From Elusimicrobiota bacterium (GTDB lineage Bacteria; Elusimicrobiota; Elusimicrobia; F11), in the NCBI GenBank assembly GCA_044221725.1, contig JBGAON010000002.1:192001-256000 (forward strand): a stretch of 64,000 nucleotides of DNA, given 5' to 3'. The position numbers and the translations under genes are program-made. The notes beneath the pieces were generated by a model. The model was not told where the DNA came from and did no database searches. It worked only from the letters and a program-made list of their open reading frames with translations. Position 1 is the first letter of the stretch. Each line of letters opens with the position of its first letter. Positions 26,916 through 62,759 of this stretch are shown piece after piece.

Positions 26916-26931
26916 TAAAAAAAGTTAGACG

Positions 26932-26982: not shown

Positions 26983-26992
26983 GAGGAACTCT

Positions 26993-27475: not shown

Positions 27476-27476
27476 A

Positions 27477-36674: not shown

Positions 36675-36676
36675 CG

Positions 36677-38506: not shown

Positions 38507-38507
38507 T

Positions 38508-39897: not shown

Positions 39898-39917
39898 AGG
39901 CCGATAACAGGAATCCT

Positions 39918-41027: not shown

Positions 41028-41043
41028 AAATCAAGGAGACACA

Positions 41044-41919
41044 ATGAAACGAAACGGATACACCGAATTTCCCTGCGACGTCTGTTTAAGCAAGGATGCT
41101 GTCGAGGTGCCTCACAGTCGGGAATATTCCCGTAACGAGCCAATCCACATTTGTAAGCAGTGCGGCTTTGTTTACGTGAAGCTTCGTCGTCCTCCGCAAA
41201 AAATCGCCGATGTGTGGTCCAAAGATATTTTTCAGAAAGGATACACGGCGCATATTCCGCACGTTCTCGCCCGACAAACGTTCGTGGCGGGTACGTTGGA
41301 CAATCACGTGAAACTCCGGGGAAAAAGCGTCTGCGACATTGGCGCCGGTGAAGGACAGTTTCTCGACATTGTTCGGGACCGCAAATACGGCGCGTCGGTG
41401 TTCGGCATTGAGCCGTCGGAGTACAATTGCAAACTGCTCAAGTCGATGAGCATTCCCTATTTTCACGGGAGCATGGAGGCGTTCTTAAAAAGCCCCGAGC
41501 GAAACAATTATCGTGCGGATGTCGTGACGATTATGTGGACGCTCGAGAATTGCCAGAACCCTCGCGGCATACTGAAGGCAGCCTACGGTCTCCTCAAAGA
41601 AGATGGATACATTGTCCTCGCGACCGGAAGCCGGATTCTTGTGCCGTTTAAGAAGCCGCTGAACATGTACATCAGCAAAAACGGGGCCGACACGCACGCC
41701 ACGCATTACAGTGCAAACTCCTTGCGCGGAATTCTCGCCGAATCGCATTTTGAAACGACGTTCATCAATCGTTATTTGGATAACGATATCTTGTGTGTGA
41801 TCGCGAAGAAACGCCCGCTGAGCAAAAAGATTGCGCGCGAAACCGACAATTATTTGGACGTGTACAACTTCTTTGAGCGTTGGCACGCCGACACGCAGGT
41901 CTATTACAAGGGGCGATGA
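41044..41919 (+). CDS. Class I SAM-dependent methyltransferase with N-terminal Cys pairs
   Basis: CDVC...CKQCG, DIGAGEG, GIEPS. Confidence 0.85.
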   Translation: MKRNGYTEFPCDVCLSKDAVEVPHSREYSRNEPIHICKQCGFVYVKLRRPPQKIADVWSKDIFQKGYTAHIPHVLARQTFVAGTLDNHVKLRGKSVCDIGAGEGQFLDIVRDRKYGASVFGIEPSEYNCKLLKSMSIPYFHGSMEAFLKSPERNNYRADVVTIMWTLENCQNPRGILKAAYGLLKEDGYIVLATGSRILVPFKKPLNMYISKNGADTHATHYSANSLRGILAESHFETTFINRYLDNDILCVIAKKRPLSKKIARETDNYLDVYNFFERWHADTQVYYKGR

Positions 41920-41926
41920 CACGCCT

Positions 41927-43408
41927 TTGAAACTTTTCGCGCCGCAACGTTTCCATGTGGGACTCGGTTTCTCAACCGCATGTTTTTTTGTGGCAAAATC
42001 GGTCGGCTACGGTCGCCAGCTCATCTTGGCCTACAACTTCGGCGTTTCGAGAAATTTGGATATTTACTTGATGACCTACGCGATAACGATGCTGATCGTG
42101 TCGTCGTTTACGTTGTGGTTTGACCAAATGGCCATCCCGCGGCTCGTGCACATAAGCGAAAAAGACGGAAAAGCAGCGTTTCAGCATATGAGCGGATCGG
42201 TGTTGTCGCTGGCGGTGATTTTCGGAATTGTACTGACGGTTGTGTTTCTGCTGCTGGTCGGCCCGGTATCGGAACTCCTGTGCAAAGGATTTTCCATCGA
42301 CGAGCGCGCGTTGGTTCGGCATATGTCCTGGTATTTTGTGCCGTGGATCCTCACGATTTTTCCGTACAACGCGTTAACAGCGATTTTGAAAAGTTTGCGT
42401 TTCTATAGTGTCGTCTCTATTGCTGATCTTATGGTTTCGGTGATTTCCACAACTGGTTTTCTGTTCTGGCACTCCCGTTTGGCGGCGTTGCCGGTGACAT
42501 TGTCGCTTGGATACATAATTGCGTTTTCGACGTTGGCCTTTTTTGCGCGCTCGCATATTTCGCTTTTGGTTTCTCCTTTCCACGAGAAATTAAGCTCGCT
42601 GTACCATGATTTCAAACAGATGTTTGTGGTCAATCAAATGGTTTTCATTCAACAATCGTTTGAGCGTTTTTATCAGTCCTATTTGATTCCGGGTTCGATT
42701 GCCGCTTTCAATTATGTGAACCAACTCATGGGACCGCTTTACGAACTGCTCACGTTTGACGAAATATTCGTGGTGCCGATCTCAGCAACGGAAAATCGCG
42801 TCCAAAAATTCGAGCGCCTGCTTTGTGGGCTGCTGTTGTTGTCGGCTCCGATGGCGGTTTTTCTATTTTTCGAATCGGAAGCAATCATCCGGATTCTTTA
42901 CGAGCGCGGCCGTTTCGGTCCCGAAGCAACGCAGGTGGCTCACCGCATCCTTCAAGTCACCGCGTGCGGGCTAGCGATTGGTGCGCTCTCCACGCCGCTT
43001 ATTCGAATGCTTCAAATCTCAGGCCGCGTGCTATCGATTGGTTGGCCAAATCTCACGCTCACGACCGCCATGGTCATATTTAATTTCATTCTGATTTTTA
43101 TCATGAAGTGGGATGTGCTCGGCTTTGCCATCGCAACGGCGCTCGCGCAACAGGTTTGTGTCGTAACCGCCTTCATTATCCTCTTCCACCGCGGAATCCG
43201 GATTAACATCTTGCGGCTTGGAAAATATCTGCTGTGGTCGCTCGTTGTGAGTATGTTCTGTCACCTTGTTGCCAGTTTCCTGCCGTGGTCGGGTCGCGCG
43301 CTCATCGGATTCTTTTTACGGTCTGCCGTGTACGGCCTCATGTTGGCGTTGGCCTATTGGGGACTCCGGGCGCGATTGCGAGCAATTGTCTATGGACACG
43401 CCCAATGA
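41927..43408 (+). CDS. MurJ/MviN-like (MOP superfamily) glycan flippase
   Basis: Many hydrophobic helices; GYGRQLILAYNFG and IIRILYERGRF resemble MurJ; start approximate (TTG 41927). Confidence 0.78.
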   Translation: MKLFAPQRFHVGLGFSTACFFVAKSVGYGRQLILAYNFGVSRNLDIYLMTYAITMLIVSSFTLWFDQMAIPRLVHISEKDGKAAFQHMSGSVLSLAVIFGIVLTVVFLLLVGPVSELLCKGFSIDERALVRHMSWYFVPWILTIFPYNALTAILKSLRFYSVVSIADLMVSVISTTGFLFWHSRLAALPVTLSLGYIIAFSTLAFFARSHISLLVSPFHEKLSSLYHDFKQMFVVNQMVFIQQSFERFYQSYLIPGSIAAFNYVNQLMGPLYELLTFDEIFVVPISATENRVQKFERLLCGLLLLSAPMAVFLFFESEAIIRILYERGRFGPEATQVAHRILQVTACGLAIGALSTPLIRMLQISGRVLSIGWPNLTLTTAMVIFNFILIFIMKWDVLGFAIATALAQQVCVVTAFIILFHRGIRINILRLGKYLLWSLVVSMFCHLVASFLPWSGRALIGFFLRSAVYGLMLALAYWGLRARLRAIVYGHAQ

Positions 43409-46550: not shown

Positions 46551-47471
46551 ATGGCAGCTTCTGAGCCTCTGATCAGCGTCATTGTTCCAACCTACAACCG
46601 AGCGGACACAATCCGCCAAGCGCTGCAATCCGTCGTCGATCAGACGCACGACAATTTCGAAGTGTTCGTGGCGGACGATGGTTCAACGGACAACACCGAA
46701 GACGTCGTGCGCTCGTTCAATGATCCTCGAATTCACTATCTGCGCCTTGAGCACACGGGGCGCCCGGCCGTGGCACGAAACGAGGCTCTTAGAAAATCAA
46801 AAGGCTCGTTTATTGCTTTTTTGGATTCGGACGATATCTGGTATCCCGAGAAGACGGCCCGGCAGCTGGCCGTTTTTGAAAAGTATCCGGATTTGTTGGC
46901 CGTAGCCACGACGGTCATGTGGTTTGATGGAACGTCCGAGTGGCGCGAAGACCGGTTGTGGAGCGATTGGCGTGTTCGCATGGTGGACGTCATGAAAAAC
47001 AACATGATTGTTTACTCTAGCACGCTGATGCGCGCGTCACTCATCCAGCAAATCGGGTTGACCAGCGAAGCGCTGGAAGTGAATGCGTCGGAAGATTTCG
47101 AATATTGGTTGCGCTTGCTTGATTACAAAGACCGGTCCATTCTCATCATGAAGGATGTGCTAACAAAATATCGAACGCACAAAGGCAGTCATGTTTTTGT
47201 CTTGTCGAAAAAAACGTTGCCCGAGGAAGAACGGTACGCGTTCTGCTTGAACATGTACAAGCACAAATATCCCGAGCTTGTTCGCGATTATATTGCGGCG
47301 TACAAGCAACGCATGAATATTGTGCGGGCGACTATCGCGGTTTATCACGGGGTAAAAAATCCGTCAGAGATTTTGTCCGATAATGTTCTGCCGTTCTTGA
47401 ACCGACTTGTGATTTGCGCGAAGTACTACACAAAAAAGATTCTCGGCAAGTTGCCAGAGCCAGCACGGTGA
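46551..47471 (+). CDS. GT2 glycosyltransferase
   Basis: ISVIVPTYNRA, DDGSTD, ARN, FLDSDD, EDFEYWLR. Confidence 0.92.
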   Translation: MAASEPLISVIVPTYNRADTIRQALQSVVDQTHDNFEVFVADDGSTDNTEDVVRSFNDPRIHYLRLEHTGRPAVARNEALRKSKGSFIAFLDSDDIWYPEKTARQLAVFEKYPDLLAVATTVMWFDGTSEWREDRLWSDWRVRMVDVMKNNMIVYSSTLMRASLIQQIGLTSEALEVNASEDFEYWLRLLDYKDRSILIMKDVLTKYRTHKGSHVFVLSKKTLPEEERYAFCLNMYKHKYPELVRDYIAAYKQRMNIVRATIAVYHGVKNPSEILSDNVLPFLNRLVICAKYYTKKILGKLPEPAR

Positions 47472-49249
47472 AGCAACGCTTCGTTCTTGTCCTGATATTT
47501 GTCTTTTCTGTTGGCGTTTTTTGGCTGGGCACCTTCGCTTCCATCGATAAATCCGACCTGCCGGCGCTTTTGTTTGACGGTGTGGCGAACGCTGAAGGCC
47601 TTCGCACCACGATGTTGGAGCTCCGGTCCGAGGTTTATCAGTATTACAAGAACACAGGCACCGAGAATATTGTGATGTCGGCTTACCATGGTTACGTCGA
47701 TCCCTTGAAGAGTCACAGCGTGACCGTTGATCTCGAGGGGGAAACCGTAACGATGCCTTCCGCCGTCATTAACGAAATGCGGGGATCGCTGCTTCTCCAT
47801 CCTTATGATGAGGTAAACGCAATCCGCGCGCTGCAGCAGATTCGGCCGCGGCAATGGCAGTTCAATCCACACATCTTTCAGTACGGCACCGTTTTTATTT
47901 ACTTGCTCGGTTTTGGGTTGCTGGTGGCGCAAAAGGTTGGTGCGTTTGTTTTGACGTCGGACATGAGCTACTACCTGGTTCATCCAAACCAGATGGCCAA
48001 ATTGTATGCGGTCGCCAAAATGTGGGTGGGCGTGATGACCGCGCTCGGCGTATTTCCGCTCTATGCGCTCGGAAAATTCTGGAAAAACCGCCGCGTCGGC
48101 CTTGTTGCCGCGAGCCTTTATCCGTTCGTGCCGTTGTTTTTTATTTTCGGTCATCACATGAAACCGCACGGACTCGCTATGCCGTTCGCGTTGGCAGCGA
48201 TACTTCTTTGTTTAAAAGCGTTCCTCGAGCAGCCGACGCGGAAACAGTATTTTGTCGCCGGCCTCGTGACCGGCATGTGTATCGGTGTAATTTACACGTC
48301 GGTTTTTATTTTTCCCGTTTTGCTTATGAGTTATTGGTTTAACGCGGAGCGATCGACGTCCGAAAAAGGGACGTTCGTGATGGCTTTGCTCGGCGTGGGC
48401 GTCGGGTTCTTAATCTTCAATCCGTTCTATGTTTTGACGCCCGCAGAACCGTTGCAAGAACTGCACACACTTTTTGGTCGTCACGTGGTCACAACATCGA
48501 TCCCTGCCAAACTCAAGCAATTTTTCGGCTACGAAGTTCAAGTCGGAATTGGACGCGCGCTCTTCTTCTTGTCTTTGCTCGGCATGATCGTTGGGTTTCG
48601 CGACGGCCAGCGGTCAACACGGTTCTTGTTAGCGACGACCGTGTTGTCGGTGATTCCCACATTAATTAATCGTGGAGATGCTTATTATTCCGGACCGACA
48701 TTCGCGCTGCTGTTGTTGTGGGTTGGCATCTTTGCGGATCGAATGGTGTTCAGCACGCCGCGCTCGGTGACGGCGAGTTTCTTGTTGGGAATTACCGTCG
48801 TGCACGCCGTTTTACTTCAGCTGACGTACGTTGCGTTGTACCGGCAGCCGCAACCCGAATACGATGCCGCGAAGTGGATCAACACAAACATTCCGAAGGG
48901 GGCAACGCTGGTTCGAATTGAGGAACAAGGGGAGCATTTTTCTATTCCTTATCGGACGTGGAGATACACCGGCTACTATCCGGAGAAGCCGCTGCGTCTT
49001 GAGTCGCTGGGTTTGCCCGGGGCTCTGGAGGCCGACACGTTACGCGTAGGCTCCGCTTCTGCGCAATATGTTTTGGCCACCACGCTCGGCCAATTGCCGA
49101 CCGTTTTCGAAACGAACGGTGCTTCTTATAAACAAGTGCACATGTCCCGCCGCTACACGCAACTGCAAAAATTTTTTCCATTTGATCTGTTCCCGTATTG
49201 CATGGCGAACTTTGCGGCCAAAATTTATGTGTACGAGCGCCAACCGTGA
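47468..49249 (+). CDS. GT-C fold lipid-carrier-dependent glycosyltransferase (PMT/ArnT-like)
   Basis: N-terminal TM, loop with DE motif (HPYDE), NPHIFQYG, MKPH, about 10-12 TM helices, C-terminal soluble domain (AAKWINTNIPKG). Confidence 0.75.
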   Translation: MKQRFVLVLIFVFSVGVFWLGTFASIDKSDLPALLFDGVANAEGLRTTMLELRSEVYQYYKNTGTENIVMSAYHGYVDPLKSHSVTVDLEGETVTMPSAVINEMRGSLLLHPYDEVNAIRALQQIRPRQWQFNPHIFQYGTVFIYLLGFGLLVAQKVGAFVLTSDMSYYLVHPNQMAKLYAVAKMWVGVMTALGVFPLYALGKFWKNRRVGLVAASLYPFVPLFFIFGHHMKPHGLAMPFALAAILLCLKAFLEQPTRKQYFVAGLVTGMCIGVIYTSVFIFPVLLMSYWFNAERSTSEKGTFVMALLGVGVGFLIFNPFYVLTPAEPLQELHTLFGRHVVTTSIPAKLKQFFGYEVQVGIGRALFFLSLLGMIVGFRDGQRSTRFLLATTVLSVIPTLINRGDAYYSGPTFALLLLWVGIFADRMVFSTPRSVTASFLLGITVVHAVLLQLTYVALYRQPQPEYDAAKWINTNIPKGATLVRIEEQGEHFSIPYRTWRYTGYYPEKPLRLESLGLPGALEADTLRVGSASAQYVLATTLGQLPTVFETNGASYKQVHMSRRYTQLQKFFPFDLFPYCMANFAAKIYVYERQP

Positions 49250-49281
49250 GGTCATTGGGGTGACGAGGTCATTGGGATGAC
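49248..49281. repeat. 17-bp tandem duplication at a gene junction
   Basis: GAGGTCATTGGGGTGAC (49248-49264) then GAGGTCATTGGGATGAC (49265-49281), one mismatch. Confidence 0.85.
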
Positions 49282-50596
49282 GAAGATTTGCACGATCGGT
49301 CTCTGGCATCTGGGTTGCACAATGTCCGCGCATCTCGCTTCGCTCGGTTTCAACGTTGTCGGCGTTGATACCGACGCCACCATTGTAAAGAATCTCAACA
49401 ATGGAAAAGCGCCGTTGTCCGAGCCGGGTTTGAATGACCTAATTACGAAACAAATGAAGGACGGACACTTGTCGTTCACCTCGTCGCTTAAAGAAGGAAT
49501 CTCCGAGGCATCGTTTGTTTGGATTACATTCGACACGCCGGTTCGAGACGATGACGCGGCGGACGTGGGATTTGTTGCAAAACAATTTTCTCGCGTCGCC
49601 GAAGAAAATCTGTCGGCGGAAGGAATCATTGTTTCTTACCAGGTCTCCGTTGGGTTTTGTTCCCAGTTGGAGAAATTGGCGGAGAAAGCCGGATTCGGAA
49701 ATATTCCCATTTGTTACGTGCCAGAAAACCTGCGTTTGGGAAATGCGCTCAATGTTTTGAGAAAGATGGATCGCCTGGTGGCCGGTGTTCGCGAGGAGGG
49801 TCATAAAAAAATATTCGCGCCGGTTTTTGAAAAGATTTGCTCAAACATAATTTGGATGAAAACAGAATCCGCCGAAATGACGAAGCACGCTTTGAATGGT
49901 TTTCTCGCGACGTCCGTTGTGTTTGCAAACGAAGTAGCGACGGTTTGCGAAAGCGTGGGCGCGGATGCACGCGATGTGGCGTTGGGACTTCTTTCCGACG
50001 AAAGAATCGGCCCCAAGGCCTATTTGAAACCAGGAGCCGCTTTTGCGGGCGGAACATTGGCCCGCGACGTAACATTTCTCCGAGAATTAAGCGAGAAAAG
50101 GCGAAATCTCTCGGCGAATTTTTTCGCTGCTGTCACGAAGAGCAATCAAAGCCATCGTGATTGGGCGAAGCGAAAGCTAATATCGGAAATCAAATCGTTT
50201 GATAAGAAAGTTATTTCGGTGTGGGGTTTGAGTTACAAAGGAGGAACCGATACGTTGCGACGCTCCTGGGCCGCAGAACTGGTCGAATGGTTGATCGCGA
50301 AAGGGGCGCGGGTGAAAGTTTTTGATCCATTGATAAAACAATCTCCGAAATCGTGGCAGAAAAAAGTGGAATTCGCTCGGTCCAAAGAAGAAGCGTTGGT
50401 GGGATCGAGAGCGCTCGTGTTTGGTAACGATGACGCCTTCTTTAAGGACCTTAACGTTTCCAATCTCGCGCGGATGACAAACCGATTGATTATTGATGCG
50501 AATGGAGTTGCGCGGCTTCGCCTGTTGGCCGCGGACGTACCAATTAAATATTTTTCAGTCGGGTTTTCAGCGACGAGGATCCTTCATGGGCGCTAA
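49277..50596 (+). CDS. UDP-glucose/GDP-mannose dehydrogenase-family protein lacking the catalytic Cys (LmbL-like)
   Basis: IGLWHLG, EPGL, PENLRLG, AEMTKHALN, AFAGGTLARD (canonical GYGGSCFPKD), GLSYK. Confidence 0.85.
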   Translation: MTKICTIGLWHLGCTMSAHLASLGFNVVGVDTDATIVKNLNNGKAPLSEPGLNDLITKQMKDGHLSFTSSLKEGISEASFVWITFDTPVRDDDAADVGFVAKQFSRVAEENLSAEGIIVSYQVSVGFCSQLEKLAEKAGFGNIPICYVPENLRLGNALNVLRKMDRLVAGVREEGHKKIFAPVFEKICSNIIWMKTESAEMTKHALNGFLATSVVFANEVATVCESVGADARDVALGLLSDERIGPKAYLKPGAAFAGGTLARDVTFLRELSEKRRNLSANFFAAVTKSNQSHRDWAKRKLISEIKSFDKKVISVWGLSYKGGTDTLRRSWAAELVEWLIAKGARVKVFDPLIKQSPKSWQKKVEFARSKEEALVGSRALVFGNDDAFFKDLNVSNLARMTNRLIIDANGVARLRLLAADVPIKYFSVGFSATRILHGR

Positions 50597-51455
50597 ATCG
50601 CCGCGCGATATTCTGTTAACGGGGGCGAGCGGTGCCATCGGAACGGCCATGGCTTCCGCGCTCGCGAAAGCCGGTTTTTCACTTCATCTGACGTCGCGTC
50701 AACCGAAAAAGTTGTCCGCGCTCCAGAAAAGTGTGAAGGCCGCTGGAGCGAATGCTTTTGTGTATGCGTTGGACCTTAAATGTCCGCAAAGCATTACCGC
50801 TGTCGTAAAAACATTTATGCAGCGATCCGCAAACCCGTTTGGGCTCATCTGCAACGCCGGGGACTTCGGCGTTTTGGGAGATTTTTCAAAAGTGTCGGTG
50901 GAGCGCTGGATTTCCGATTTTTCTCAAAACTTTCTGTCGAACGCACGGCTGCTGCACGCTTTTCTCGATGGAATGAAAAGAAAAAAGGCGCCAGAAGGTT
51001 CGGTTGTCATGTTGAGCGGCGCGGGATTGGGCGGCAACAGTTCGTTTGCGCATTTCAGTTGTTACAGCACGGCCAAAGCCGCGGTTACCCATTTGGTGGA
51101 AGCATTGGCGCCAGAGCTTTTGCCGTCTCGAATTCGGATCAACGCAATTTCGCCGGGGCAAGTGTACAGCAACTTAACCGAAACGATGATCAAAGCAGGC
51201 GTGAAGCGCGTGGGCGAATTGGCCACGAGTGCCATGCGTTGCAAAGAAACGGGCGGAGTTCCGCCGCAGCTTGCGGCGCAACTGACAGAATTTTTAATGA
51301 GTCCGGACGCCGGAGAAATCACCGGTCGGTTATTGAGTGCTCGTTTTGATCTGTCTGCGCTGAAGAAGCAGGCCGGACGCGTCGCAAAGGATCCGAATCT
51401 CTTCAAGCTTCGGCGAATCGATGACGCACTATTCTCCGTTGTGAAGCCCTCATGA
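50586..51455 (+). CDS. Short-chain dehydrogenase/reductase
   Basis: TGASGAIG, CNAG, YSTAK, INAISPG; ATG 50586. Confidence 0.88.
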   Translation: MGAKSPRDILLTGASGAIGTAMASALAKAGFSLHLTSRQPKKLSALQKSVKAAGANAFVYALDLKCPQSITAVVKTFMQRSANPFGLICNAGDFGVLGDFSKVSVERWISDFSQNFLSNARLLHAFLDGMKRKKAPEGSVVMLSGAGLGGNSSFAHFSCYSTAKAAVTHLVEALAPELLPSRIRINAISPGQVYSNLTETMIKAGVKRVGELATSAMRCKETGGVPPQLAAQLTEFLMSPDAGEITGRLLSARFDLSALKKQAGRVAKDPNLFKLRRIDDALFSVVKPS

Positions 51456-52423
51456 AAGCGATTGTGACCGGTGCGGCCGGTTTCATTGGAAGCAATGTGG
51501 TTGACCGCTTGCTCGCGGACGGAGCGACCGTTATTGGCGTCGACAATTTGGCAACGGGCCGAAAACGGTTTCTTGAGCGCGCACTGAAAAACTCGAAGTT
51601 CCATTTTGAGAGGCGGGACCTGTCGGAGCGAACGGCTTTGGATGGTCTTTTAAACAAAGATACCAACTGGGTTTTTCATTTTGCGGCCAATGCGGACGTT
51701 CGTGACGGGTTGCTTCATCCGGAAAAAGACGTTCAGCAAAATATTTTGGTGACCTGGAATATCCTGGAAGCCATGCGGAAGGCCGATGTGCACCGAATTG
51801 TATTCAGTTCCACCGGAAGTATTTATGGCGAGGCGCCGGTGATTCCCACTCCGGAGGATTGCCCGTTTCCGGTTCAAACGTCGCTTTACGGAGCGTCCAA
51901 GCTTGCGGCCGAAGGACTGTTGTCGGCGTATGCGGAGGGCTACGGTTTTAAAGCACGCATTTTCCGTTTTGTTTCGATTTTGGGACCGCGTTACACGCAT
52001 GGACATGTTTTCGATTTCGTTCGGCAATTGAAACAGAATCCCAAAAAACTAAAAATTCTCGGCGATGGAAAACAAAAGAAATCGTATCTCGGTGTGGACG
52101 ATTGCATCGAAGCCATCCTCACAGCCATTCGTCACGATACCTCGGCAAAAATTGCGATTTATAATCTCGGTGCGGACGAATTCGTAACCGTCGACCAATC
52201 CATTGATGTCATCACCAAAGAATTGAACCTCCAGCCCGAAAGAATTTACGCGGGAGGAGATCGCGGTTGGGTGGGCGACAATCCTTTCATTTTTTTGAAA
52301 ACAGACAAGATACGAGCCCTGGGCTGGTCCAATAAATCGGATATTCGCGCCTGTGTCTCGCAGACGGTTCGTTTCTTGTTAGAAAACCCTTGGGTCTACG
52401 AAAAGGAGGCTGTTTCCCAATGA
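51452..52423 (+). CDS. NAD-dependent NDP-sugar epimerase (LmbM-like)
   Basis: TGAAGFIG, HFAANAD, SSTGSIYG, YGASK, GDGKQKKSY. Confidence 0.9.
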   Translation: MKAIVTGAAGFIGSNVVDRLLADGATVIGVDNLATGRKRFLERALKNSKFHFERRDLSERTALDGLLNKDTNWVFHFAANADVRDGLLHPEKDVQQNILVTWNILEAMRKADVHRIVFSSTGSIYGEAPVIPTPEDCPFPVQTSLYGASKLAAEGLLSAYAEGYGFKARIFRFVSILGPRYTHGHVFDFVRQLKQNPKKLKILGDGKQKKSYLGVDDCIEAILTAIRHDTSAKIAIYNLGADEFVTVDQSIDVITKELNLQPERIYAGGDRGWVGDNPFIFLKTDKIRALGWSNKSDIRACVSQTVRFLLENPWVYEKEAVSQ

Positions 52424-53403
52424 TCATCACGCGAACGCCGCTTCGAATCAGTCTCGGCGGTGGAGGAACCGATCTCCCTTCTTATTATTCCCGTTTCGGC
52501 GGCTTCGTAATTTCCGCGGCCATTGATTGTTACGTTTACATTACGCTGTACCGAATTTTTCCGAAGAAGTACATCGTTAAATATTCGACGCTCGAAACGG
52601 TCGATGAAATAAGCCAAATCCAACATCCAATTGTGCGCGAGGCTTTTAAGATGCACGGCATCGATCCGTATATCGAAATGGTGAGCATTGCCGACATTCC
52701 CGCTGGCACCGGGCTCGGTTCGTCGGGTGCGTTTAATGTCGGGTTGCTTCGTGCGATTCATGCTTTCAAGAAACATCACGTGTCGCCACAAGAATTGGCC
52801 GAACAGGCCTGTCGCATTGAGATCGATTTGCTGAAGGAGCCCGTCGGAAAACAGGACCAGTACATATCGGCGTTTGGCGGCGTCATCTGCATGGACATAA
52901 GTTCCTCGGGCGACGTGAACGTGACGCCATTAAAAATACCTGCCGAAACGTTGAACGATCTCGAGGATCATCTGCTCATGTTTTTCACGGGCTACTCGCG
53001 CAACGCGAGCGATGTGCTGAAGGATCAAAAAGTACGAACCGAAAGTGATGATAAGGCAATGATTGAAAATCTCCATTTCATCAAGGAGCTGGGGCATTCC
53101 ATTAAAACCTCTTTGGAAAACGGTCAGCCGGAGAAATTTGCGAGTTTGATGCACGAACACTGGTTGCACAAGAAAAAGCGTTCGGCCACGATTAGCAACG
53201 ACAACATTTCCCGTTGGTACGATCTTGCGCGCGAAAATGGCGCGCTCGGGGGAAAATTGATCGGCGCCGGCGGAGGCGGCTTTCTTATGTTTTACGCGAA
53301 GGATGCAGAACGCCTTCGAAAAGCAATGGCGAAAGAAGGGCTTACCGAGGTGCGATTTGGTTTTGACCACGAAGGCGCCAAAGTAATGGTGATGGGCGGG
53401 TGA
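52420..53403 (+). CDS. hddA: GHMP sugar-phosphate 1-kinase (HddA/LmbP-like)
   Basis: RTPLRISLGGGGTDLP, PAGTGLGSSG, GKQDQY, GGKLIGAGGGGF. Confidence 0.9.
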   Translation: MIITRTPLRISLGGGGTDLPSYYSRFGGFVISAAIDCYVYITLYRIFPKKYIVKYSTLETVDEISQIQHPIVREAFKMHGIDPYIEMVSIADIPAGTGLGSSGAFNVGLLRAIHAFKKHHVSPQELAEQACRIEIDLLKEPVGKQDQYISAFGGVICMDISSSGDVNVTPLKIPAETLNDLEDHLLMFFTGYSRNASDVLKDQKVRTESDDKAMIENLHFIKELGHSIKTSLENGQPEKFASLMHEHWLHKKKRSATISNDNISRWYDLARENGALGGKLIGAGGGGFLMFYAKDAERLRKAMAKEGLTEVRFGFDHEGAKVMVMGG

Positions 53404-54395
53404 TTCGCGTCGGGCTCATTGGGGCCGGCCTGATTGGCGCAAAACGCGCGCAGCATATGGGCGACGCCAAACTTGTTGCTGTGCATGACAAGGATGTTTC
53501 TCGGTCTCGCGCGTTAGCGAAAAATTACGGAGCGCAGGTCGAGGAGAATTGGAAAACCCTGGTCGGCCGTTCGGACATTGACGCGATCGTTGTCGCAACG
53601 TCGCACGATGGTTTGGCGTCGTGTTCAGTCGCGGCGCTTAAATCCGGCAAGCATGTGCTCGTGGAAAAGCCCGGTGGACGAAACCCACAAGAGATCAAGT
53701 TGCAAATCCAAGCCGCTCGCGCGGCGCGCAAGGTTCTTCGCGTCGGTTTTAATCATCGCTTTCATCCCGGGTTGAAAAAAGCCGCCGAACTGGTCGCGTC
53801 AAAAGAGTTTGGGTCTCTTTTGTTTATTCGGGCGCGCTACGGCCATGGAGGCCGCGTCGGATATGAAAAAGAGTGGAGAGCGAACCCAAAAATCAGCGGG
53901 GGCGGCGAATTGTTGGATCAAGGCGTGCATTTGATCGATCTCACGCAGTGGATCGGCGGCACGTTCAATCCCGCGTGGTCCATGACGAACACATTTTTCT
54001 GGCCCATGAAGGTTGAAGATTATGGCTTCGTCGCGCTCAAATCGGCGGATTCCAAGCGCTGGGCTTGGTTGCACGCGAGTTGGGTGGAGTGGAAAAATGT
54101 TTTCCACTTTGAAATTTTCTGTGAACGCGCGAAGTTCGAAATCAGCGGATTGGGGGGAAGCTATGGTCCCGAAGAACTGAAATGTTTCCGAATGAAACCG
54201 GAGATGGGACCTCCGGAGGTCGATGTGTTTTCGTTTCCGAGCGAAGACGTTTCGTGGAAAAACGAATGGGAAGACTTTGAGAGAGCGATTCACGGGAAAC
54301 CGGAAACCATGGGCGCGCGCGGAGAAGATGCATTAAGAACCATGAACATTGTGCACTGGGTGTATGCGCAAAAAAAGAAAGCGCGTCGACGCTGA
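53400..54395 (+). CDS. Gfo/Idh/MocA oxidoreductase (LmbZ-like)
   Basis: GLIGAGLIG, HVLVEKP, GFNHRF, GGELLDQGVHLID. Confidence 0.88.
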   Translation: MIRVGLIGAGLIGAKRAQHMGDAKLVAVHDKDVSRSRALAKNYGAQVEENWKTLVGRSDIDAIVVATSHDGLASCSVAALKSGKHVLVEKPGGRNPQEIKLQIQAARAARKVLRVGFNHRFHPGLKKAAELVASKEFGSLLFIRARYGHGGRVGYEKEWRANPKISGGGELLDQGVHLIDLTQWIGGTFNPAWSMTNTFFWPMKVEDYGFVALKSADSKRWAWLHASWVEWKNVFHFEIFCERAKFEISGLGGSYGPEELKCFRMKPEMGPPEVDVFSFPSEDVSWKNEWEDFERAIHGKPETMGARGEDALRTMNIVHWVYAQKKKARRR

Positions 54396-55119
54396 AAATT
54401 TCCCGGTCGTGATATTGGCCGGTGGGCTGGGCACACGGCTTGGCTCGCTCACCGCGGGTCGCCCCAAAGCGCTTGTGCCGGTGGCCGGAAAGCCATTCTT
54501 GTTTCATCAACTTGAGTTGTTGCGAAGAAAAGGTTTGTCCCACGTGATTCTTTCTGTTGGTTACAAAGCGGCATTGATCAAACGAGCGGTCAAAGCGGCG
54601 AAAATTTCGGGAATGCGCATTGAATTCGTTGAGGACGGTCCGGTGCCTCTCGGAACGGGCGGCGCTGTCCGAAAAGCGGCCCAGTTGGTGGACGGTCCTT
54701 TCTTCGTTCTTTATGGCGATTCGTATCTAGAAATCAATTATCTTGCTGTCGCGCAGGCTTATAAAAAATCTGGAAAAAAGGGGTTAATGACGGTATATAG
54801 GAATAATAATCGACTTGATAAAAGCAACTTGATTTTTCGACGTGGTTTGATAAAGCGCTATTCAAAGAACGAGGTAACGCCGCAAATGAGGCACATTGAC
54901 TACGGACTGACCATTATTAATAAGGAGCAACTGAAATCCTTCCCCGCCCACCGAAAATTCGATTTAAGCGCGATTTTCCAAAAACTCATTAAAAAAAACG
55001 AAATGGCCGCGGTCGAAGTGAAAAAGCGATTCTACGAAGTCGGTTCTCCGTCCGGAATTCAAGCGCTCGAAGTGCACCTTGCGAGGAAACGACGATGTCC
55101 TATTCCGAAGATTTCTTAA
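54364..55119 (+). CDS. hddC: Sugar-1-phosphate nucleotidyltransferase (HddC/LmbO-like)
   Basis: ILAGGLGTRL, PKAL, PLGTGGA, LYGDSY, FYEVGS; start approximate. Confidence 0.85.
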   Translation: MRKKRKRVDAENFPVVILAGGLGTRLGSLTAGRPKALVPVAGKPFLFHQLELLRRKGLSHVILSVGYKAALIKRAVKAAKISGMRIEFVEDGPVPLGTGGAVRKAAQLVDGPFFVLYGDSYLEINYLAVAQAYKKSGKKGLMTVYRNNNRLDKSNLIFRRGLIKRYSKNEVTPQMRHIDYGLTIINKEQLKSFPAHRKFDLSAIFQKLIKKNEMAAVEVKKRFYEVGSPSGIQALEVHLARKRRCPIPKIS

Positions 55120-55694
55120 AGCTATCCGCCGACATCACGAGTCGGCTGGACGTTACGGTTCTTGAGAAGATGGTCACCGCACTTTTTGATTTGCGTGAAC
55201 GCGGTGGACGGTTGTTTGTTCTCGGTGTGGGAGGAAGCGCAGCAAACGCGTCGCACGCCGTAAACGATTTTCGCAAGATCGCCAACATTGAAACCTACAC
55301 GCCGACCGACAACGCAGCGGAACTGACCGCGCGAGTGAACGACGATGGGTGGGATTCGTGTTTCGCGAATTGGCTTAAAGTGAGCCGCTTTTCGAAGAAC
55401 GATATGTTGATGATTTTCTCTGTTGGCGGCGGCGACAAGAAAAGAAACGTTAGTCCGAATCTCATCGTTGCAATGGACATGGCGAAATCTCTCGGCGCTC
55501 CGATTTTATCGGTCGTCGGCCGTGATGGCGGATATGCCGCACAGGTTTCCACGCATTGCGTTGTTATTCCGCCGCTCAACGCGGAGATGGTGACGCCGCA
55601 GACCGAAGGCTTTCAAGCAATTGTTTGGCACTTGCTGGTGTCTCACCCGAAATTAAAGAGTGCTCCGATGAAATGGGAGTCCATCACGAAGTAA
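55095..55694 (+). CDS. gmhA: SIS-domain phosphosugar isomerase (GmhA/LmbN-like, divergent)
   Basis: GVGGSAANASHAVND, TARVNDDG, FSVGGG, GRDGG. Confidence 0.8.
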   Translation: MSYSEDFLKLSADITSRLDVTVLEKMVTALFDLRERGGRLFVLGVGGSAANASHAVNDFRKIANIETYTPTDNAAELTARVNDDGWDSCFANWLKVSRFSKNDMLMIFSVGGGDKKRNVSPNLIVAMDMAKSLGAPILSVVGRDGGYAAQVSTHCVVIPPLNAEMVTPQTEGFQAIVWHLLVSHPKLKSAPMKWESITK

Positions 55695-55696
55695 TC

Positions 55697-56818
55697 ATGG
55701 TTGAGAATAATTCCACGTCCACATCCAATCTCGTCGTCCAGCCGGAGCGTTTGAGCAAAAAAATAAAGCGTCTCGTGAAAGGTCCTCGCCCGGTGTTCCG
55801 AACACTCTTTGGTTTGCGCGCGTTGCGAGAGGGCATCAAAGGGTATGTCAAAGGACGGCGTGGAGCGAAGGACCATTTGGCGGCCACAATTTCCTTTATC
55901 AGCGGCTCAAACACGGTGGCCGGACGCCCAATGAATATCACAATTGAACCAACGAGCGCCTGCAATCTTGCCTGCCCGATCTGTGAAACCGGAGACCGAC
56001 GACTCGAGCGTCCTATGAAGCACATGACGATGGACGATTTCAAAACGATCATCGACAAGATTGCTCCGCACACGAACACGTTGATGTTTTATTTCATGGG
56101 CGAGCCTTTTATTAATCAGGATTCTTACGCGATGCTGCGGTACGCCAAAGACAAAGGTATTCCATTTATCACAACCTGTACGAACGGCGATTTTGTGAAC
56201 GCCGAGAAGCTCATCGACAGCGGTATCGACGAAATTAGCTTTCAGATGGGTGGGCTAACGCAGGAAACCCACCAAACGTACAGAATCAACAGCAATCTTG
56301 AGCGCGTGATGAAAAATCTCCAAGAAACAATTCGCGTGCGAAACGAAAGAAAATCAAAACTAATCATTAAAAGCGGTTTGATCATCATGAAGCACAATGA
56401 GCACGAAGTGGTGCCGTTCTTAAAACAAATGAAGGACCTTGGCGTGGATCAACCGCACATTGTGGACACCGTCATTCGAACGTACGAGGAAGGCGTCAAA
56501 TATCTTCCGACCGATCAGAGTCACTGGAAATACGATCCCGAGGCGTTCAAACAAGGCGTCGTGAAACCACGGTTCTTACCGCCGAATGCGTGCCCATGGA
56601 TTTATTATTCGCTTTCGATTCACGTGAACGGAAACGTGGTTCCGTGTTGCTGGGATCCGACCGGCAAATACGTAATGGGAAATCTCGTCACGGAGTCGCT
56701 CGATGCTGTTTGGAATGGCCCCAAGTTTCGCGCGTTCCGCGATCAACTTCATAAGGATCAAGGACAGATTGAGATTTGTAAGTTGTGCTCGTCCTACCCT
56801 CACAGCCCCATCCGTTGA
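55697..56818 (+). CDS. Radical SAM protein with SPASM/twitch domain
   Basis: EPTSACNLACPIC, MGEP, TNG, C-terminal CPW...GNVVPCCWD...GN...CKLC; ATG 55697. Confidence 0.9.
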   Translation: MVENNSTSTSNLVVQPERLSKKIKRLVKGPRPVFRTLFGLRALREGIKGYVKGRRGAKDHLAATISFISGSNTVAGRPMNITIEPTSACNLACPICETGDRRLERPMKHMTMDDFKTIIDKIAPHTNTLMFYFMGEPFINQDSYAMLRYAKDKGIPFITTCTNGDFVNAEKLIDSGIDEISFQMGGLTQETHQTYRINSNLERVMKNLQETIRVRNERKSKLIIKSGLIIMKHNEHEVVPFLKQMKDLGVDQPHIVDTVIRTYEEGVKYLPTDQSHWKYDPEAFKQGVVKPRFLPPNACPWIYYSLSIHVNGNVVPCCWDPTGKYVMGNLVTESLDAVWNGPKFRAFRDQLHKDQGQIEICKLCSSYPHSPIR

Positions 56819-56820
56819 CC

Positions 56821-57354
56821 ATGGCAATGGCCGTGTTTCTTGATCGAGATGGCGTGCTGAACGAAGCGATTGTGCGTGAAGGAAAACCTTTCGCCCCTCA
56901 GGCCATGGAAGATCTCAAGCTCGCGCCCGGCGCCGTCGATGCTTGCCATCAACTAAAGACCGCCGGATTTCTTCTCATTGGCGTCACGAACCAGCCGGAC
57001 GTGGTTCGCGGAACGACAAAAAAAGAATTGGTGGAAAGCATCAATGCGCACGTCTCCAAAGAACTTGGCTTGCACGATTTGCGGACGTGTTACCACGACA
57101 ACGCCGACAATTGTTTGTGTCGCAAGCCAAAGCCCGGCATGATTTTGGACGCTGCAAAGCAATGGAAGATAGATTTGTCCCGCAGCTACATGGTCGGTGA
57201 TCGTTCAGGGGATATTGAAGCCGGGCGACGGGCCGGCGTTACCACCATTTTTATCGAACACCACTATAGTGAGGAGTTGAAACTCAAGCCGGATTTTGTG
57301 ACGGCATCTCTTAAGGAGGCGAGTCTATGGATCCTAAAAAACTCGAGGCAGTAA
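56821..57354 (+). CDS. gmhB: HAD-IIIA sugar-bisphosphate phosphatase (GmhB/LmbK-like)
   Basis: FLDRDGVLN, VTNQP, CYH...CLCRKPKPGM, MVGDR. Confidence 0.92.
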   Translation: MAMAVFLDRDGVLNEAIVREGKPFAPQAMEDLKLAPGAVDACHQLKTAGFLLIGVTNQPDVVRGTTKKELVESINAHVSKELGLHDLRTCYHDNADNCLCRKPKPGMILDAAKQWKIDLSRSYMVGDRSGDIEAGRRAGVTTIFIEHHYSEELKLKPDFVTASLKEASLWILKNSRQ

Positions 57355-58067
57355 AAGATCCGCAGAAACTTAAGATCAAGATTTTTGCTGATGGGGCCAA
57401 CAAAGAGGGAATGTTGGCCATGTACGCGCGGCCTTACATCAAAGGCTTCACGACCAATCCCACTCTGATGCGCAAAGCCGGCATTTCCGATTACAAAGCT
57501 TTTGCGCAGGACGTTCTAAAGAGCATCAAAGATCGCCCAATTTCATTTGAAGTGTTCTCCGATGACCTGGAAGAAATGGAGCGTCAAGCGGTAGAGATTG
57601 CGTCGTGGGGCACGAACGTGTACGTAAAGATTCCGGTGACGAACACAAAGGGAACATTTTGCGGCGATGTCATTCGCGCGCTAGCGAATAAGAAAGTGAA
57701 GATGAACGTCACCGCGGTCATGACATTGGAGCAAATCAAGCAAATCGTTCCTTGCATGAACAACGGCGTGCCGGGCGTTATCTCGGTTTTTGCCGGACGC
57801 GTGGCGGACACAGGAAGAGACCCGGTCCCTCATATGCAGCAGGCGCTTACTATCCTGAAGCCGTTTCCGAATTTGGAGTTGCTGTGGGCGAGCCCGCGCG
57901 AGTTGCTTAACATTTTTCAGGCCGACGAGATAGGGTGTCACATCATCACCGTCACAAACGACATTCTCGAAAAGCTGTCGCTTTTGAACAAAGATCTTTC
58001 GCATTATTCTCTCGAAACCGTTCAAATGTTTTACAACGACGCTCAAAAATCCGGATTTTCCTTGTAA
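57327..58067 (+). CDS. Transaldolase-family protein (short TalC type; LmbR-like)
   Basis: IFADGA, GFTTNPTL, ISFEV, VYVKIP (Schiff-base Lys), NVT, SVFAGR, WASPR. Confidence 0.92.
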   Translation: MDPKKLEAVKDPQKLKIKIFADGANKEGMLAMYARPYIKGFTTNPTLMRKAGISDYKAFAQDVLKSIKDRPISFEVFSDDLEEMERQAVEIASWGTNVYVKIPVTNTKGTFCGDVIRALANKKVKMNVTAVMTLEQIKQIVPCMNNGVPGVISVFAGRVADTGRDPVPHMQQALTILKPFPNLELLWASPRELLNIFQADEIGCHIITVTNDILEKLSLLNKDLSHYSLETVQMFYNDAQKSGFSL

Positions 58068-58073
58068 GACCCA

Positions 58074-58805
58074 TTGACCAAACTTTCGATCATTATTCCA
58101 GCCTTTAACGAAAGGCCTACCGTTGAGCAGCTTCTAAAAGAAGTGATTGCTGTTGATCTCGCACCGCTCGGCGTCGAAAAAGAAATTATCGTTGTCGAAA
58201 GTGGATCGACCGATGGCACGCGCGAGGTGGTCAAAGATTTTGAAAGCAAAGGGCTCGTAAAGGCCATTTACCAACCGAAACCCCGCGGCAAAGGAAATGC
58301 GGTGCGCGCCGCCTTCGCGACGCTTACGGGGGATATCGTTCTCATTCAAGACGCCGACCTTGAATACCGCGTGTCGGAATATCCGGATTTGTTGAAACCG
58401 CTTTTGTCGGGGCAAACCGATTTTGTTTTGGGATCGCGTCACCTCGGGAAAGGCGATTGGCATTTTCGGAAATTCGTGCACGGAAAATTGTCCGCGGCCT
58501 TTATGAATTTTGGGAACAAATTGTGCAACACGCTCTTCAATATTCTGTACGGCGTTGATTTAACGGACCCCACAACGATGTTTAAGGTGTTTCGCGCGTC
58601 GTGTATCCGCGGAGTCACGTTTCGTTCGGATTACTTCGAGTTGGATTTGGAGATCGTGGGAAAACTGATTCGTCGGAAATATTTCCCGATCGAGATTCCG
58701 ATCAGTTACGTGTCGCGAGGGTTTGATGAAGGGAAGAAAATTCGGATTTCGCGTGATGGTTTCCTGGTCATCTACGCGATGTTTCGGTTTCGGTGGTTTG
58801 ATTGA
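58074..58805 (+). CDS. GT2 polyprenol-phosphate glycosyltransferase (DPM synthase-like)
   Basis: LSIIIPAFNE, SGSTDGT, GKG, IQDADLEY, GSR, EIPISYVSRGFDEGKK. Confidence 0.9.
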   Translation: MTKLSIIIPAFNERPTVEQLLKEVIAVDLAPLGVEKEIIVVESGSTDGTREVVKDFESKGLVKAIYQPKPRGKGNAVRAAFATLTGDIVLIQDADLEYRVSEYPDLLKPLLSGQTDFVLGSRHLGKGDWHFRKFVHGKLSAAFMNFGNKLCNTLFNILYGVDLTDPTTMFKVFRASCIRGVTFRSDYFELDLEIVGKLIRRKYFPIEIPISYVSRGFDEGKKIRISRDGFLVIYAMFRFRWFD

Positions 58806-61100: not shown

Positions 61101-62759
61101 TTGAAGCACTTGATCATCTTGGCCTCTGTCACGATCGGATTGGGTTTTTGGGGCCTGTCCTGGGGCCTTCCTTCGGAATCTCGCCGTGAATTGTTTTTAA
61201 AGCCCGCGCTTCGAACGCCGGAGTTCTATGCGCAACTCGAGCGGTTGCGCACCACTCGATACAACGAAATGGGAATGAACAGCGCCGCGTACGCTGGCCG
61301 TCTTCAACGCGAAGGTCAGCAATTTCACGGTCCCACCGATATCTTGTTCTGTTATGGTTCGTACCTCGTGAGAAGCCACGACGCCGATGAACAGCAGACG
61401 CTCGTCGCGGTGTCACGACTCAATCCGCTGAAAGGGAAATGGTACCCGCACGCGTTCTACTACGGTGGAGGGTACATTTATCCGTTGGCGTTTTTTCTCG
61501 GTTTGGGGAAAGTCATCGGTTTTGTGACGTTGGTACCGCAGGTGTCTTTTTACTACGAGCATGCGAACGAAATGGGGAAAATTTTCCTCATGTTGCGCTC
61601 GTGGAGCGTTGTCGGGCTGTTGTTCAGTTGCATGTGTCTGTATGTCTGCGCGAAACAATTTGCGTCGAGATCCGTGGCGTTTTGGTCGAGTTTGTTTTTT
61701 GTTCTTGCACCGGTGAATCTCGCGTTTTCCAAAATCGGCAAGCCGCACACCTGGGGGCCCGGATGGACCCTGCTCGCGATAGGGATGTGCGCCCGATTTA
61801 AAGAGTCGCAGCGAACGCGTGACTTGTTGTTGGCCGCCGCGTTTATGGGATTTGCGATTGGGACGACAACGAGTCAGTGCGTCTTTTTTCCGTTTCTCGT
61901 TTGGGCCATAGGAATGCGCTCTCCAAAATTGTTCGTCGCGCGTTCATTGATGGCGTTTGTGGTGGTTTGCGGCGTTTTCCTCGTTTTGAATCCCACGTTG
62001 CCGTTTCATTTTCAGGATTTCATGGACGAGGTTCGGTTCATCGGTTCGTGGTATCCGTTTAAAGTCCGCATTCCGGCGATATTTGAGTTCGTTTATCACT
62101 CGGTGCTGCCCGCTTTAACGCCGGTGTTGTTTGTTGTCTCGGTGGCCGGATTGGTCGTTGTGATCGCAAACTCGCCGGATCGCAAAGTGCGCCATCTGTT
62201 GTTGTTATTCCTGTTGCCTCTCGCGTTGGTTTCGTTTCAGGTTCAAGCGGCGACCAAGGAGGCCATTCAGATTCGGATATTTCTTTCAGGAGTGGCGTTG
62301 CTGTCTTTTGCGGCCGCGTATTTTTCGTTTCAGTTTTCATGGGGTGTCGCTGTGCGCTGGATTGTTTTGTCGGTGTTGTTCGGGTTTGCCGCGCTTTACA
62401 ATCTTCATTTTGCGTCCGACCGGGCGCCCAACGATAACGCTTCGCTGGCATCAAAATGGATCGCCGCAACGATTCCCGAAGGATCGACTTTTGAAATGTT
62501 TTATTTCATCCCGACGCCCGACCAATTGCCGCCGGTGGATTTTCAGACGTACAAATTTGTCTCGTACCGATCCGGAGAGGCCGGTCAAAAGGGGAATTAT
62601 CTTCTGGTGAACCCGATTGGCATTGATATCGAAAAGGAAGTATTGGCGAAAGGGTACGTGCTCGTGAAGAAGTTTGAAACATCACCGCTGCAGAAGCTTA
62701 AACTCCCGGACTATTTTTCGAACGCGAACTTTCCGGTTCTGATTTATCAGAAAACGTAA
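61101..62759 (+). CDS. GT-C fold lipid-carrier-dependent glycosyltransferase (paralog of 47468-49249)
   Basis: WGLPS, SHDADE, YPHAFYYG, GKPH, many TM helices, ASKWIAATIPEG. Confidence 0.75.
   Translation: MKHLIILASVTIGLGFWGLSWGLPSESRRELFLKPALRTPEFYAQLERLRTTRYNEMGMNSAAYAGRLQREGQQFHGPTDILFCYGSYLVRSHDADEQQTLVAVSRLNPLKGKWYPHAFYYGGGYIYPLAFFLGLGKVIGFVTLVPQVSFYYEHANEMGKIFLMLRSWSVVGLLFSCMCLYVCAKQFASRSVAFWSSLFFVLAPVNLAFSKIGKPHTWGPGWTLLAIGMCARFKESQRTRDLLLAAAFMGFAIGTTTSQCVFFPFLVWAIGMRSPKLFVARSLMAFVVVCGVFLVLNPTLPFHFQDFMDEVRFIGSWYPFKVRIPAIFEFVYHSVLPALTPVLFVVSVAGLVVVIANSPDRKVRHLLLLFLLPLALVSFQVQAATKEAIQIRIFLSGVALLSFAAAYFSFQFSWGVAVRWIVLSVLFGFAALYNLHFASDRAPNDNASLASKWIAATIPEGSTFEMFYFIPTPDQLPPVDFQTYKFVSYRSGEAGQKGNYLLVNPIGIDIEKEVLAKGYVLVKKFETSPLQKLKLPDYFSNANFPVLIYQKT

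Follow-up and report, generated by a model that had tools for sequence, protein, structure and literature searches.

What do ten tightly packed genes in a large glycan island of an Elusimicrobiota bacterium make, and where does their product go? The genes lie at 49277-58067 of a 64-kb window (contig JBGAON010000002.1 of assembly GCA_044221725.1, 64,000 nucleotides, whose positions serve as coordinates throughout; G000 is the window's own genome), and an earlier note on this DNA had read them as a lincomycin-type module making a guanosine diphosphate (GDP)-octose for surface glycosylation. Nine of the ten, all but a radical SAM gene, form a conserved cassette of bacterial phyla and archaea. Our reading, to which we give a probability of roughly 60%, is that this mobile nine-gene cassette would make a straight-chain octose activated as a nucleoside diphosphate (NDP) by the lincosamide route, probably in an 8-deoxy-6-hydroxy form, and that the sugar would be delivered on polyprenyl phosphate to an extracytoplasmic glycosylation system. 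No description of the cassette was found in the literature (here and below, open-licence full-text papers, supplements excluded).

A nine-gene cassette shared by bacteria and archaea

Ten open reading frames (ORFs) on the + strand fill the interval in the order previously described, and profile scans of the window proteins confirm that observation, placing them in turn in the Pfam families UDPG_MGDP_dh (N, central and C), adh_short (a short-chain dehydrogenase/reductase, SDR), Epimerase, GHMP (N and C), GFO_IDH_MocA, NTP_transferase, SIS_2, Radical_SAM with SPASM, HAD-IIIA and TAL_FSA. At nine of nine junctions the neighbours overlap or are separated by no more than 2 bases, and only 6 bases separate the transaldolase from the family 2 glycosyltransferase (GT2) gene that follows.

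This arrangement is not due to chance. In a synteny search of the kind that the earlier note had proposed, a scan of GTDB genomes for stretches selected by family motifs, the nine-gene cassette recurs in at least 577 confirmed stretches, and the best 80, which were inspected, represent many bacterial phyla and several archaea; the highest-ranked named locus among them is L025, from an Elusimicrobiota metagenome-assembled genome. Partners were counted in those 37 of the 80 loci whose flanks extend 9 kb or more in each direction: the kinase and the Gfo/Idh/MocA (Gfo) gene occur in 36 each, an SDR in 35, the epimerase in 34, the nucleotidyltransferase in 32, the phosphatase and the transaldolase in 31 each and the isomerase in 28. 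Six complete loci lack the transaldolase; in four of the five such genomes examined a cassette-type isomerase (54-59%) is present elsewhere with a transaldolase at most 2 kb from it, and the fifth has neither. As a control, 20 of 55 places with an HddA-like kinase in 251 Pseudomonadota were fetched, two known cassette loci being excluded, and none of the 20 contains a transaldolase or a UDP-glucose dehydrogenase (UGDH) homologue.

The radical SAM gene, which had been counted as part of the module, is present in 0 of the best 80 related loci and is also missing from the copy in the same-genus genome G002. A role as a core step was therefore rejected, and the gene is a local insert, a passenger. 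In the PDB its product best matches enzymes that act on sugars, namely BtrN, cytosylglucuronate decarboxylase and DesII. Another radical SAM/SPASM gene, at 60026-61087 (+), is interrupted by an in-frame TAG (60458-60460); since a contig from a separate run on this sample covers the site without a difference, the TAG is probably a real stop and not an assembly error.

The cassette is patchily spread. It is found in 8 of 60 relatives of the host and in one of three in the host genus, and in 19 of 61 members of the family of genome G062 (labelled Coxiellaceae), where the complete set of nine is present in 10 of the 13 fetched. Plasmids of Lawsonia intracellularis and Rhizobium jaguaris also bear all nine, and cultured carriers include R. 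jaguaris CCGE525 (L023) and Pollutimonas bauzanensis (L036). Among 301 sampled Actinomycetota genomes, ten of them marked unpublished and counted solely as negatives, the one with a strong cassette-type match is the centre genome itself, matches in a phage collection are only 24-31% identical (among 15 of 28 records listed), and ESM Atlas matches have generic names only.

Two related arrangements were seen. In L204 (G002:C4, 4873-15164) the neighbours of a cassette-type isomerase and transaldolase are genes for an HpcH/HpaI aldolase, a CMP-transferase and a 2-hydroxyacid dehydrogenase, a combination that may lead to an ulosonic acid of longer chain, and sets of SIS, TAL and Gfo genes resembling it are present in L203, L208 and L213. 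In a variant cassette at L217:6738-17448 and L156:8494-14757 an HldE-like kinase/cytidylyltransferase-fold protein replaces the GHMP kinase and nucleotidyltransferase, and Asn occupies the dehydrogenase Cys position. This variant resembles the Coxiella cbu0674-0678 region as the literature describes it. According to passages of the Coxiella papers, virenose requires a region that contains a phosphoheptose isomerase, epimerases and an HldE-like gene and whose role is unclear; no mention of these genes was found in passages of PMC3204966 and PMC3539893.

Kinship with the lincosamide sugar enzymes

The first gene had been called a Cys-less UDP-glucose dehydrogenase homologue, and alignment with the ordinary paralogue at 21930-23273 bears this out: AGGTLARD at the catalytic site aligns with GGSCFPKD, with Thr260 at the position of the catalytic Cys, and GxGYVG is replaced by GLWHLG and KSTVP by SYQVS. 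The enzyme has the same three Pfam domains and fold as the UDP-glucose and GDP-mannose 6-dehydrogenases and retains Lys203, Asn207, Glu150 and Asp264, but differs from them in having Thr for the catalytic Cys, His for the Tyr of GxGY and Gln for the Thr of KST; an ordinary Ugd was rejected on the replacement of the Cys. Its AlphaFold model (pLDDT 90) matches UDP-glucose dehydrogenases with TM 0.86-0.89 (0.88 to 3GG2), GGTLARD is present in 119 of the 120 closest proteins, and of 151 homologues aligned from a profile search 138 carry Thr where the Cys would be. In established chemistry the UGDH residues lost here serve the second oxidation and thioester hydrolysis, and PDB titles among the structural matches name Y10, T131, E161 and a thiohemiacetal. 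Since the residues for the second oxidation are lost, the enzyme should halt at the carbonyl stage, as would suit a sugar whose C6 hydroxyl is secondary and which thus has seven or more carbons, and it should not make a uronic acid. A further nucleotide-sugar dehydrogenase homologue, at G000:C3 642885-643950, gives a tblastn match in two pieces, which suggests an interruption, and a candidate for LmbL, P0243, was set aside as its relatives carry no such name.

Lincosamide genes, named here after tables in PMC4351081 and PMC12945683, were gathered by searching 401 genomes of a chaplin-rich genus, which gave 14 kinase matches, six of them with the full R-S-O-P-Z-N-M-L-K set. A neighbour protein in L184 is identical to CcbF (PDB 8KDK) at 416 of 416 positions, which identifies L184 as the celesticetin cluster. 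Each of the eight Ccb sugar enzymes (R, N, P, K, O, M, L and Z) has its best match in G000 among the cassette genes, at 29-42% identity, as the earlier note's lincosamide comparison anticipated.

Trees were built from hand-picked subsets of 30-58 rows, all but two of them by quick searches. A 100/100 branch separates the cassette transaldolases and CcbR from 14 TalC/FSA sequences, and a 99/93 branch separates the cassette isomerases and CcbN from 13 others (E. coli GmhA and 12 heptose-locus isomerases). The window isomerase and CcbN share Asp for Glu65 of GmhA and Glu for its Gln172, the former change being present in 70 of 73 isomerases of Cys-less loci. CcbL lies inside the Cys-less clade (SH-aLRT 100); its motifs are GLWHLG, PENLRLG and SGSTLQRD, of which the first two, and the Thr at the Cys position, are common to the window enzyme. 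CcbM groups with the cassette epimerases (SH-aLRT 99) and CcbK within the clade of the window phosphatase (SH-aLRT 98); not every K copy belongs to that clade, three others from Streptomyces and several from cassettes lying outside it. The transaldolase, isomerase and dehydrogenase thus fall away from the sampled TalC/FSA, GmhA and ordinary Ugd sequences, and not among the canonical enzymes that the earlier note had set against its proposal. CcbZ is 38% identical to the window Gfo protein (E 4e-51; next paralogue 9e-10).

The transaldolase had also been thought dedicated to the module. It passes TIGR02134 (360 bits against the curated cut-off of 282) and is a third copy in G000, and its reading as the housekeeping enzyme was rejected given the two others. 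The ordinary GDP-D-glycero-D-manno-heptose pathway (GmhA, HddA, GmhB and HddC) has the logic of isomerase, GHMP kinase, HAD phosphatase and nucleotidyltransferase in common with the cassette, whose kinase falls among HddA-like proteins. However, the window proteins score far under the curated cut-offs of that pathway (kinase, 173 bits for an HddA cut-off of 600; isomerase, 42 for a GmhA cut-off, TIGR00441, of 209; nucleotidyltransferase, 101 for an HddC cut-off of 300), the isomerase is without Glu65 and Gln172 and on the side of CcbN, and the cassette has a transaldolase, a Cys-less dehydrogenase, a Gfo enzyme and an SDR besides. A separate GmhA-type gene is present in G000.

The cassette works like the lincosamide octose pathway, yet it is no lincosamide cluster. 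Both have the same eight enzyme families, the R, N, L, M and K clades and the Cys-to-Thr dehydrogenase motifs in common, but the window cassette has an SDR for the aminotransferase, no carrier domain on the N or Z homologue (the Gfo protein has 331 residues, whereas CcbZ has 427 and includes one) and, among the window proteins scanned, none of the LmbT/V/D/C/E/F partners. Pfam families for LmbT/V thiol transfer, LmbC/D condensation and carrier domains were likewise not found among these proteins. Relative to the celesticetin set the kinase is from another branch, the transaldolase has Glu and Phe where CcbR has Gln and Leu, and the gene order is different. The setting is also unlike that of lincosamide clusters, being envelope glycosylation with a GT2 and GT-C enzymes.

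The replacement of LmbS by the SDR, as first proposed, is seen across the collection. Of 101 non-Streptomyces loci, 94 have an SDR no more than 3 kb from the dehydrogenase; of 6 lincosamide-type clusters none has, and LmbS-type aminotransferases are present there, so that the two are mutually exclusive, and the SDR and dehydrogenase are fused, in both orders, in 4 of 150 representatives. Aminotransferases near six cassette loci are only 24-35% alike. No LmbS aminotransferase was found at the window cassette, the nearest DegT-type genes being at least 17 kb upstream and 33% identical to a CcbS-type query. The window SDR is of a minority type, with 27% identity to the main cassette SDR and 48-59% to copies in L025, L206 and G002.

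Other loci related to the lincosamide genes were noted. Within the host's class, one cassette in a glycan locus, L215 (G029:C136:5376-13956), encodes four proteins that each branch as sister to their Ccb counterparts: the transaldolase, the epimerase, the Gfo enzyme and the Cys-less dehydrogenase. Neither an SDR nor an aminotransferase lies near it, and the 16 kb fetched gave no isomerase match. A further cluster of celesticetin type is L185 (G764:C1), whose identity to those ccb proteins that were compared is about 84-91%. L187, L188, L189 and L192 (G800, G604, G633 and G538) are orphan Streptomyces-type clusters with R-S-O-P-Z-N-M-L-K, an LmbT-like glycosyltransferase and ABC transporter genes, with no adenylation or condensation genes seen nearby; they possibly make a new lincosamine-containing metabolite.

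Carbon count and tailoring of the proposed product

Gene content, co-occurrence and kinship are observed, and each reaction that follows is modelled on the Lmb and Ccb homologues. The transaldolase would transfer a three-carbon unit from fructose 6-phosphate or sedoheptulose 7-phosphate (S7P) to ribose 5-phosphate, giving octulose 8-phosphate, which the SIS enzyme would convert to octose 8-phosphate. Kinase, phosphatase and nucleotidyltransferase would then yield the NDP-octose (GDP by analogy only), and the epimerase would fix its stereochemistry. The Cys-less dehydrogenase would oxidise the secondary C6 hydroxyl, needing no thiol because oxidation would end at the ketone, and with the Gfo enzyme the C8 hydroxyl would be lost to leave a 6-keto-8-deoxy-octose, a 6,8-dehydration whose mechanism was reportedly treated by Wang et al. 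in PNAS in 2020. Finally the SDR would reduce C6 where LmbS would aminate it. In the lincosamide case, a section of PMC12945683 has LmbM, LmbL, CcbZ and CcbS converting GDP-octose to GDP-lincosamide.

Two considerations favour the octose. Oxidation at C6 followed by loss of the C8 hydroxyl requires eight carbons and employs both the L and the Z homologues; and where the ordinary S7P/GmhA route sufficed, there would be no need of a special transaldolase-isomerase pair. By this analysis a product of eight carbons is likely, and the odds that it has the 8-deoxy-6-hydroxy form are about even.

An unusual heptose is the main rival, and an unlikely one. Here the transaldolase would boost S7P, the CcbN-type isomerase would give gluco- and not manno-heptose 7-phosphate, and once the sugar is activated the epimerase would invert C4, and the dehydrogenase and SDR would invert C6, yielding a D- or L-glycero-gluco- or galacto-heptose. 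A number of points weigh against an octose, and several speak for this heptose. The window transaldolase keeps the classical Glu75 and Phe155, as do 65 of 68 cassette copies, in the motifs SFEVF and SVFAGR (SVQVA and SLLWGR in CcbR), and TIGR02134-type enzymes also occur outside glycan loci (L021 and L024), so that membership of the family alone does not imply octulose. The residue changes of the isomerase may set C2 stereochemistry and not chain length. Loss of the Cys is compatible with any sugar having a secondary C6 hydroxyl, heptoses included, and the dehydrogenase and SDR could act as a C6 epimerase on a heptose, a two-step reaction that their fusions suit equally. The CcbM clade also holds two epimerases from transaldolase-free heptose-type loci.

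The kinship itself is uneven. A single clade of the kinase with CcbP is rejected (p-AU 0.0015, with no mixture model and with composition warnings), the kinase, the sole copy matched in G000, grouping with non-cassette HddA-like kinases; CcbO joins the window nucleotidyltransferase at only SH-aLRT 88, with 32% identity, and the trees do not settle the position of the window Gfo relative to CcbZ. Of the relationships first proposed for LmbR/N/P/K/O/M/L/Z, the trees therefore uphold R, N, L, M and K and reject P, with O at 88 and Z unplaced. The identities to Ccb proteins reach just 29-42%, and the composition of the Streptomyces rows is skewed and often raised warnings in the trees.

According to PMC10680097, surface glycans contain heptoses of many configurations, whereas no straight-chain octose in a surface glycan was found, and passages of a survey of 55 monosaccharide pathways (PMC7725333) mention no octose. 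No cassette carrier could be tied to a known glycan structure, E. coli being without a match to 3.9 kb of the Enterobacteriaceae copy L101.

What tells against the heptose is that it leaves no role for the CcbZ-like Gfo enzyme, kept in nearly all complete loci, and that the control loci chosen by an HddA-like kinase do without a transaldolase. It also leaves unexplained the pairing of a special transaldolase and isomerase, even when unlinked from the tailoring genes, in genomes with other sources of S7P.

It is improbable that the product is an octose that is not 8-deoxy or is further altered, the dehydrogenase, Gfo enzyme and SDR acting merely as epimerases or reductases, or the BtrN-like radical SAM protein and linked methyltransferases tailoring a different C8 sugar. 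The minority type of the window SDR, the sugar-acting matches of the radical SAM protein and the methyltransferases beside 24 of 40 loci would fit such a product, but the CcbL- and CcbZ-like genes are kept nearly everywhere, as in the lincosamide set where both act together (in the section of PMC12945683 cited above), and the radical SAM gene is confined to this locus as against the 80 related ones and G002.

Proposed delivery, surroundings and meaning

For delivery of the proposed octose, the GT2 next to the cassette would place the sugar on polyprenyl phosphate, a flippase would turn the lipid-linked sugar outward, and GT-C enzymes would transfer it to an envelope glycan or protein. The GT2 has relatives of 44-53% in 17 cassette loci. 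In G002 a compact unit between housekeeping genes runs dehydrogenase-SDR-epimerase-kinase-Gfo-nucleotidyltransferase-phosphatase-GT2 with a PMT_2 protein; its GT2, which ends the cassette, is 69% identical to that of the window, and its isomerase and transaldolase are in a different glycan locus. The association with a GT2 and a GT-C that the earlier note described thus holds in a second genome of the genus. Taken overall, what stands of that interpretation is the lincosamide kinship of the R-, N-, L-, M- and K-type genes, the SDR exchange and the GT2/GT-C link; the CcbP-type kinase and the radical SAM protein as a member do not.

The nearest flanking genes of 40 loci include a GtrA or LPG_synthase_TM flippase in 14 and an O-antigen ligase in 5. 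Weighing against the lipid-carrier route, no GtrA was found in G000 (94% complete), and its LPG_synthase_TM flippase lies about 260 kb away, beside another GT2. The MOP flippase at 41831 or this distant gene could serve as the flippase for the sugar, and a MATE-type flippase serves in a three-component glycosylation system described in part of PMC11127046. At family level only, the GtrABC-type system in that part of the paper has a polyprenyl-phosphate-type GT2 and a GT-C beside sugar genes, as here, but the window donor has its own nine-step pathway and G000 is without GtrA. We regard a lipid-carrier route in this genome as reasonably likely. A different destination, either a secreted lincosamide-like molecule or a cytoplasmic Leloir glycosyltransferase of the neighbouring O-antigen-type locus, is very improbable: it draws on the homology to ccb genes, on the adjoining GT4 (58802) and second GT2 (46551), on some related loci beside O-antigen ligases and GT4s with no GtrA in their nearest flanks, and on the lack of a linked flippase in G000, but no NRPS, LmbT-like S-glycosyltransferase or condensation gene was found among the scanned window proteins or 149 flank proteins (no genome-wide LmbT search was made), and G002 retains only a GT2 and a GT-C with its cassette.

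Table 1. Cassette genes and candidate delivery genes in the 64-kb window
Feature	Position	Strand	Basis
Cys-less (Thr260) nucleotide-sugar dehydrogenase, CcbL/LmbL family; proposed C6 oxidase/dehydration partner	49277..50596	+	CcbL motifs, 34% identity, SH-aLRT 100
SDR, YSTAK catalytic motif, minority cassette type; proposed 6-keto reductase instead of LmbS	50586..51455	+	adh_short, homologue comparison
NDP-sugar epimerase, CcbM/LmbM-like	51452..52423	+	40% to CcbM; SH-aLRT 99 clade
GHMP sugar-phosphate 1-kinase, HddA/LmbP function, not CcbP orthologue	52420..53403	+	GHMP N/C; p-AU 0.0015
Gfo/Idh/MocA oxidoreductase, CcbZ/LmbZ-like, without carrier-protein domain	53400..54395	+	38% to CcbZ
Sugar-1-phosphate nucleotidyltransferase, LmbO/HddC function	54364..55119	+	32% to CcbO; SH-aLRT 88
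SIS ketose-phosphate isomerase, CcbN/LmbN-related, not GmhA	55095..55694	+	99/93 branch with CcbN; shared residues
Radical SAM/SPASM protein, operon insert, not conserved; possible local sugar-tailoring enzyme	55694..56818	+	Best PDB match BtrN
HAD-IIIA bisphosphate phosphatase, CcbK/LmbK-like	56821..57354	+	42% to CcbK; SH-aLRT 98
Dedicated transaldolase (TIGR02134), CcbR/LmbR-related; Lys101, Glu75, Phe155	57327..58067	+	Third genome copy; 100/100 split with CcbR
Soluble DPM1/GtrB-like GT2; proposed polyprenyl-phosphate loading enzyme	58074..58805	+	Family match; no transmembrane segment by hydropathy
GT-C-type membrane glycosyltransferase candidate (PMT_2), upstream of cassette	47414..49249	+	PF13231 E 5e-9; 9 hydrophobic segments
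Second GT-C candidate (PMT_2, weak), paralogue of 47414	61101..62759	+	26% identity to 47414
MurJ/MOP-family flippase of wider glycan island; possible candidate flippase for lipid-linked sugar	41831..43408	+	PF03023 E 2e-18

The island that surrounds these genes contains upstream a UDP-glucose dehydrogenase, NeuB, DegT aminotransferases, formyltransferases and the MurJ-type flippase, and downstream further GT2 and epimerase genes. A nonulosonic-acid-type locus occupies 25800-41919, with NeuB, a CMP-transferase, two DegT aminotransferases, two formyltransferases, two asparagine-synthase amidotransferases and a HisH/HisF-like pair. ORFs of 274, 289 and 369 residues without a Pfam match lie at 44855-46515 and 39918-41027. 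At 62769-64000 (-) is a GT2-methyltransferase fusion, like those that flank many cassette loci, and a further probable membrane protein is encoded just past the window (G000:C4, 256.2-257.6 kb). The sequencing runs that match the window are bioreactor and wastewater metagenomes. In each of two RNA runs from a single study, contigs cover part of the window (23 and 21 of 30 bins); they were set aside as evidence of expression, since such coverage does not show transcription.

A broader scenario, whose odds we put a little short of even, is that a straight-chain 8-deoxy-octose is a common but unrecognised unit of surface glycans in bacteria and archaea, the product of a mobile cassette that hundreds of species carry, and that from this cassette the lincomycin and celesticetin sugar pathway was recruited with exchange of the SDR for an aminotransferase and of the GT2 and GT-C for a thiol transferase. 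In four trees the sister of the Ccb enzymes is L215, the glycan-locus copy from the host's class. If true, this would add a new monosaccharide class to prokaryotic surface glycans, point to the origin of the lincosamide sugar, provide small non-streptomycete homologues for the unusual LmbL/LmbZ chemistry, and relabel hundreds of genes now called UDP-glucose dehydrogenase, phosphoheptose isomerase, galactokinase and housekeeping transaldolase. Even a heptose would give a pathway to a widespread uncharacterised operon.

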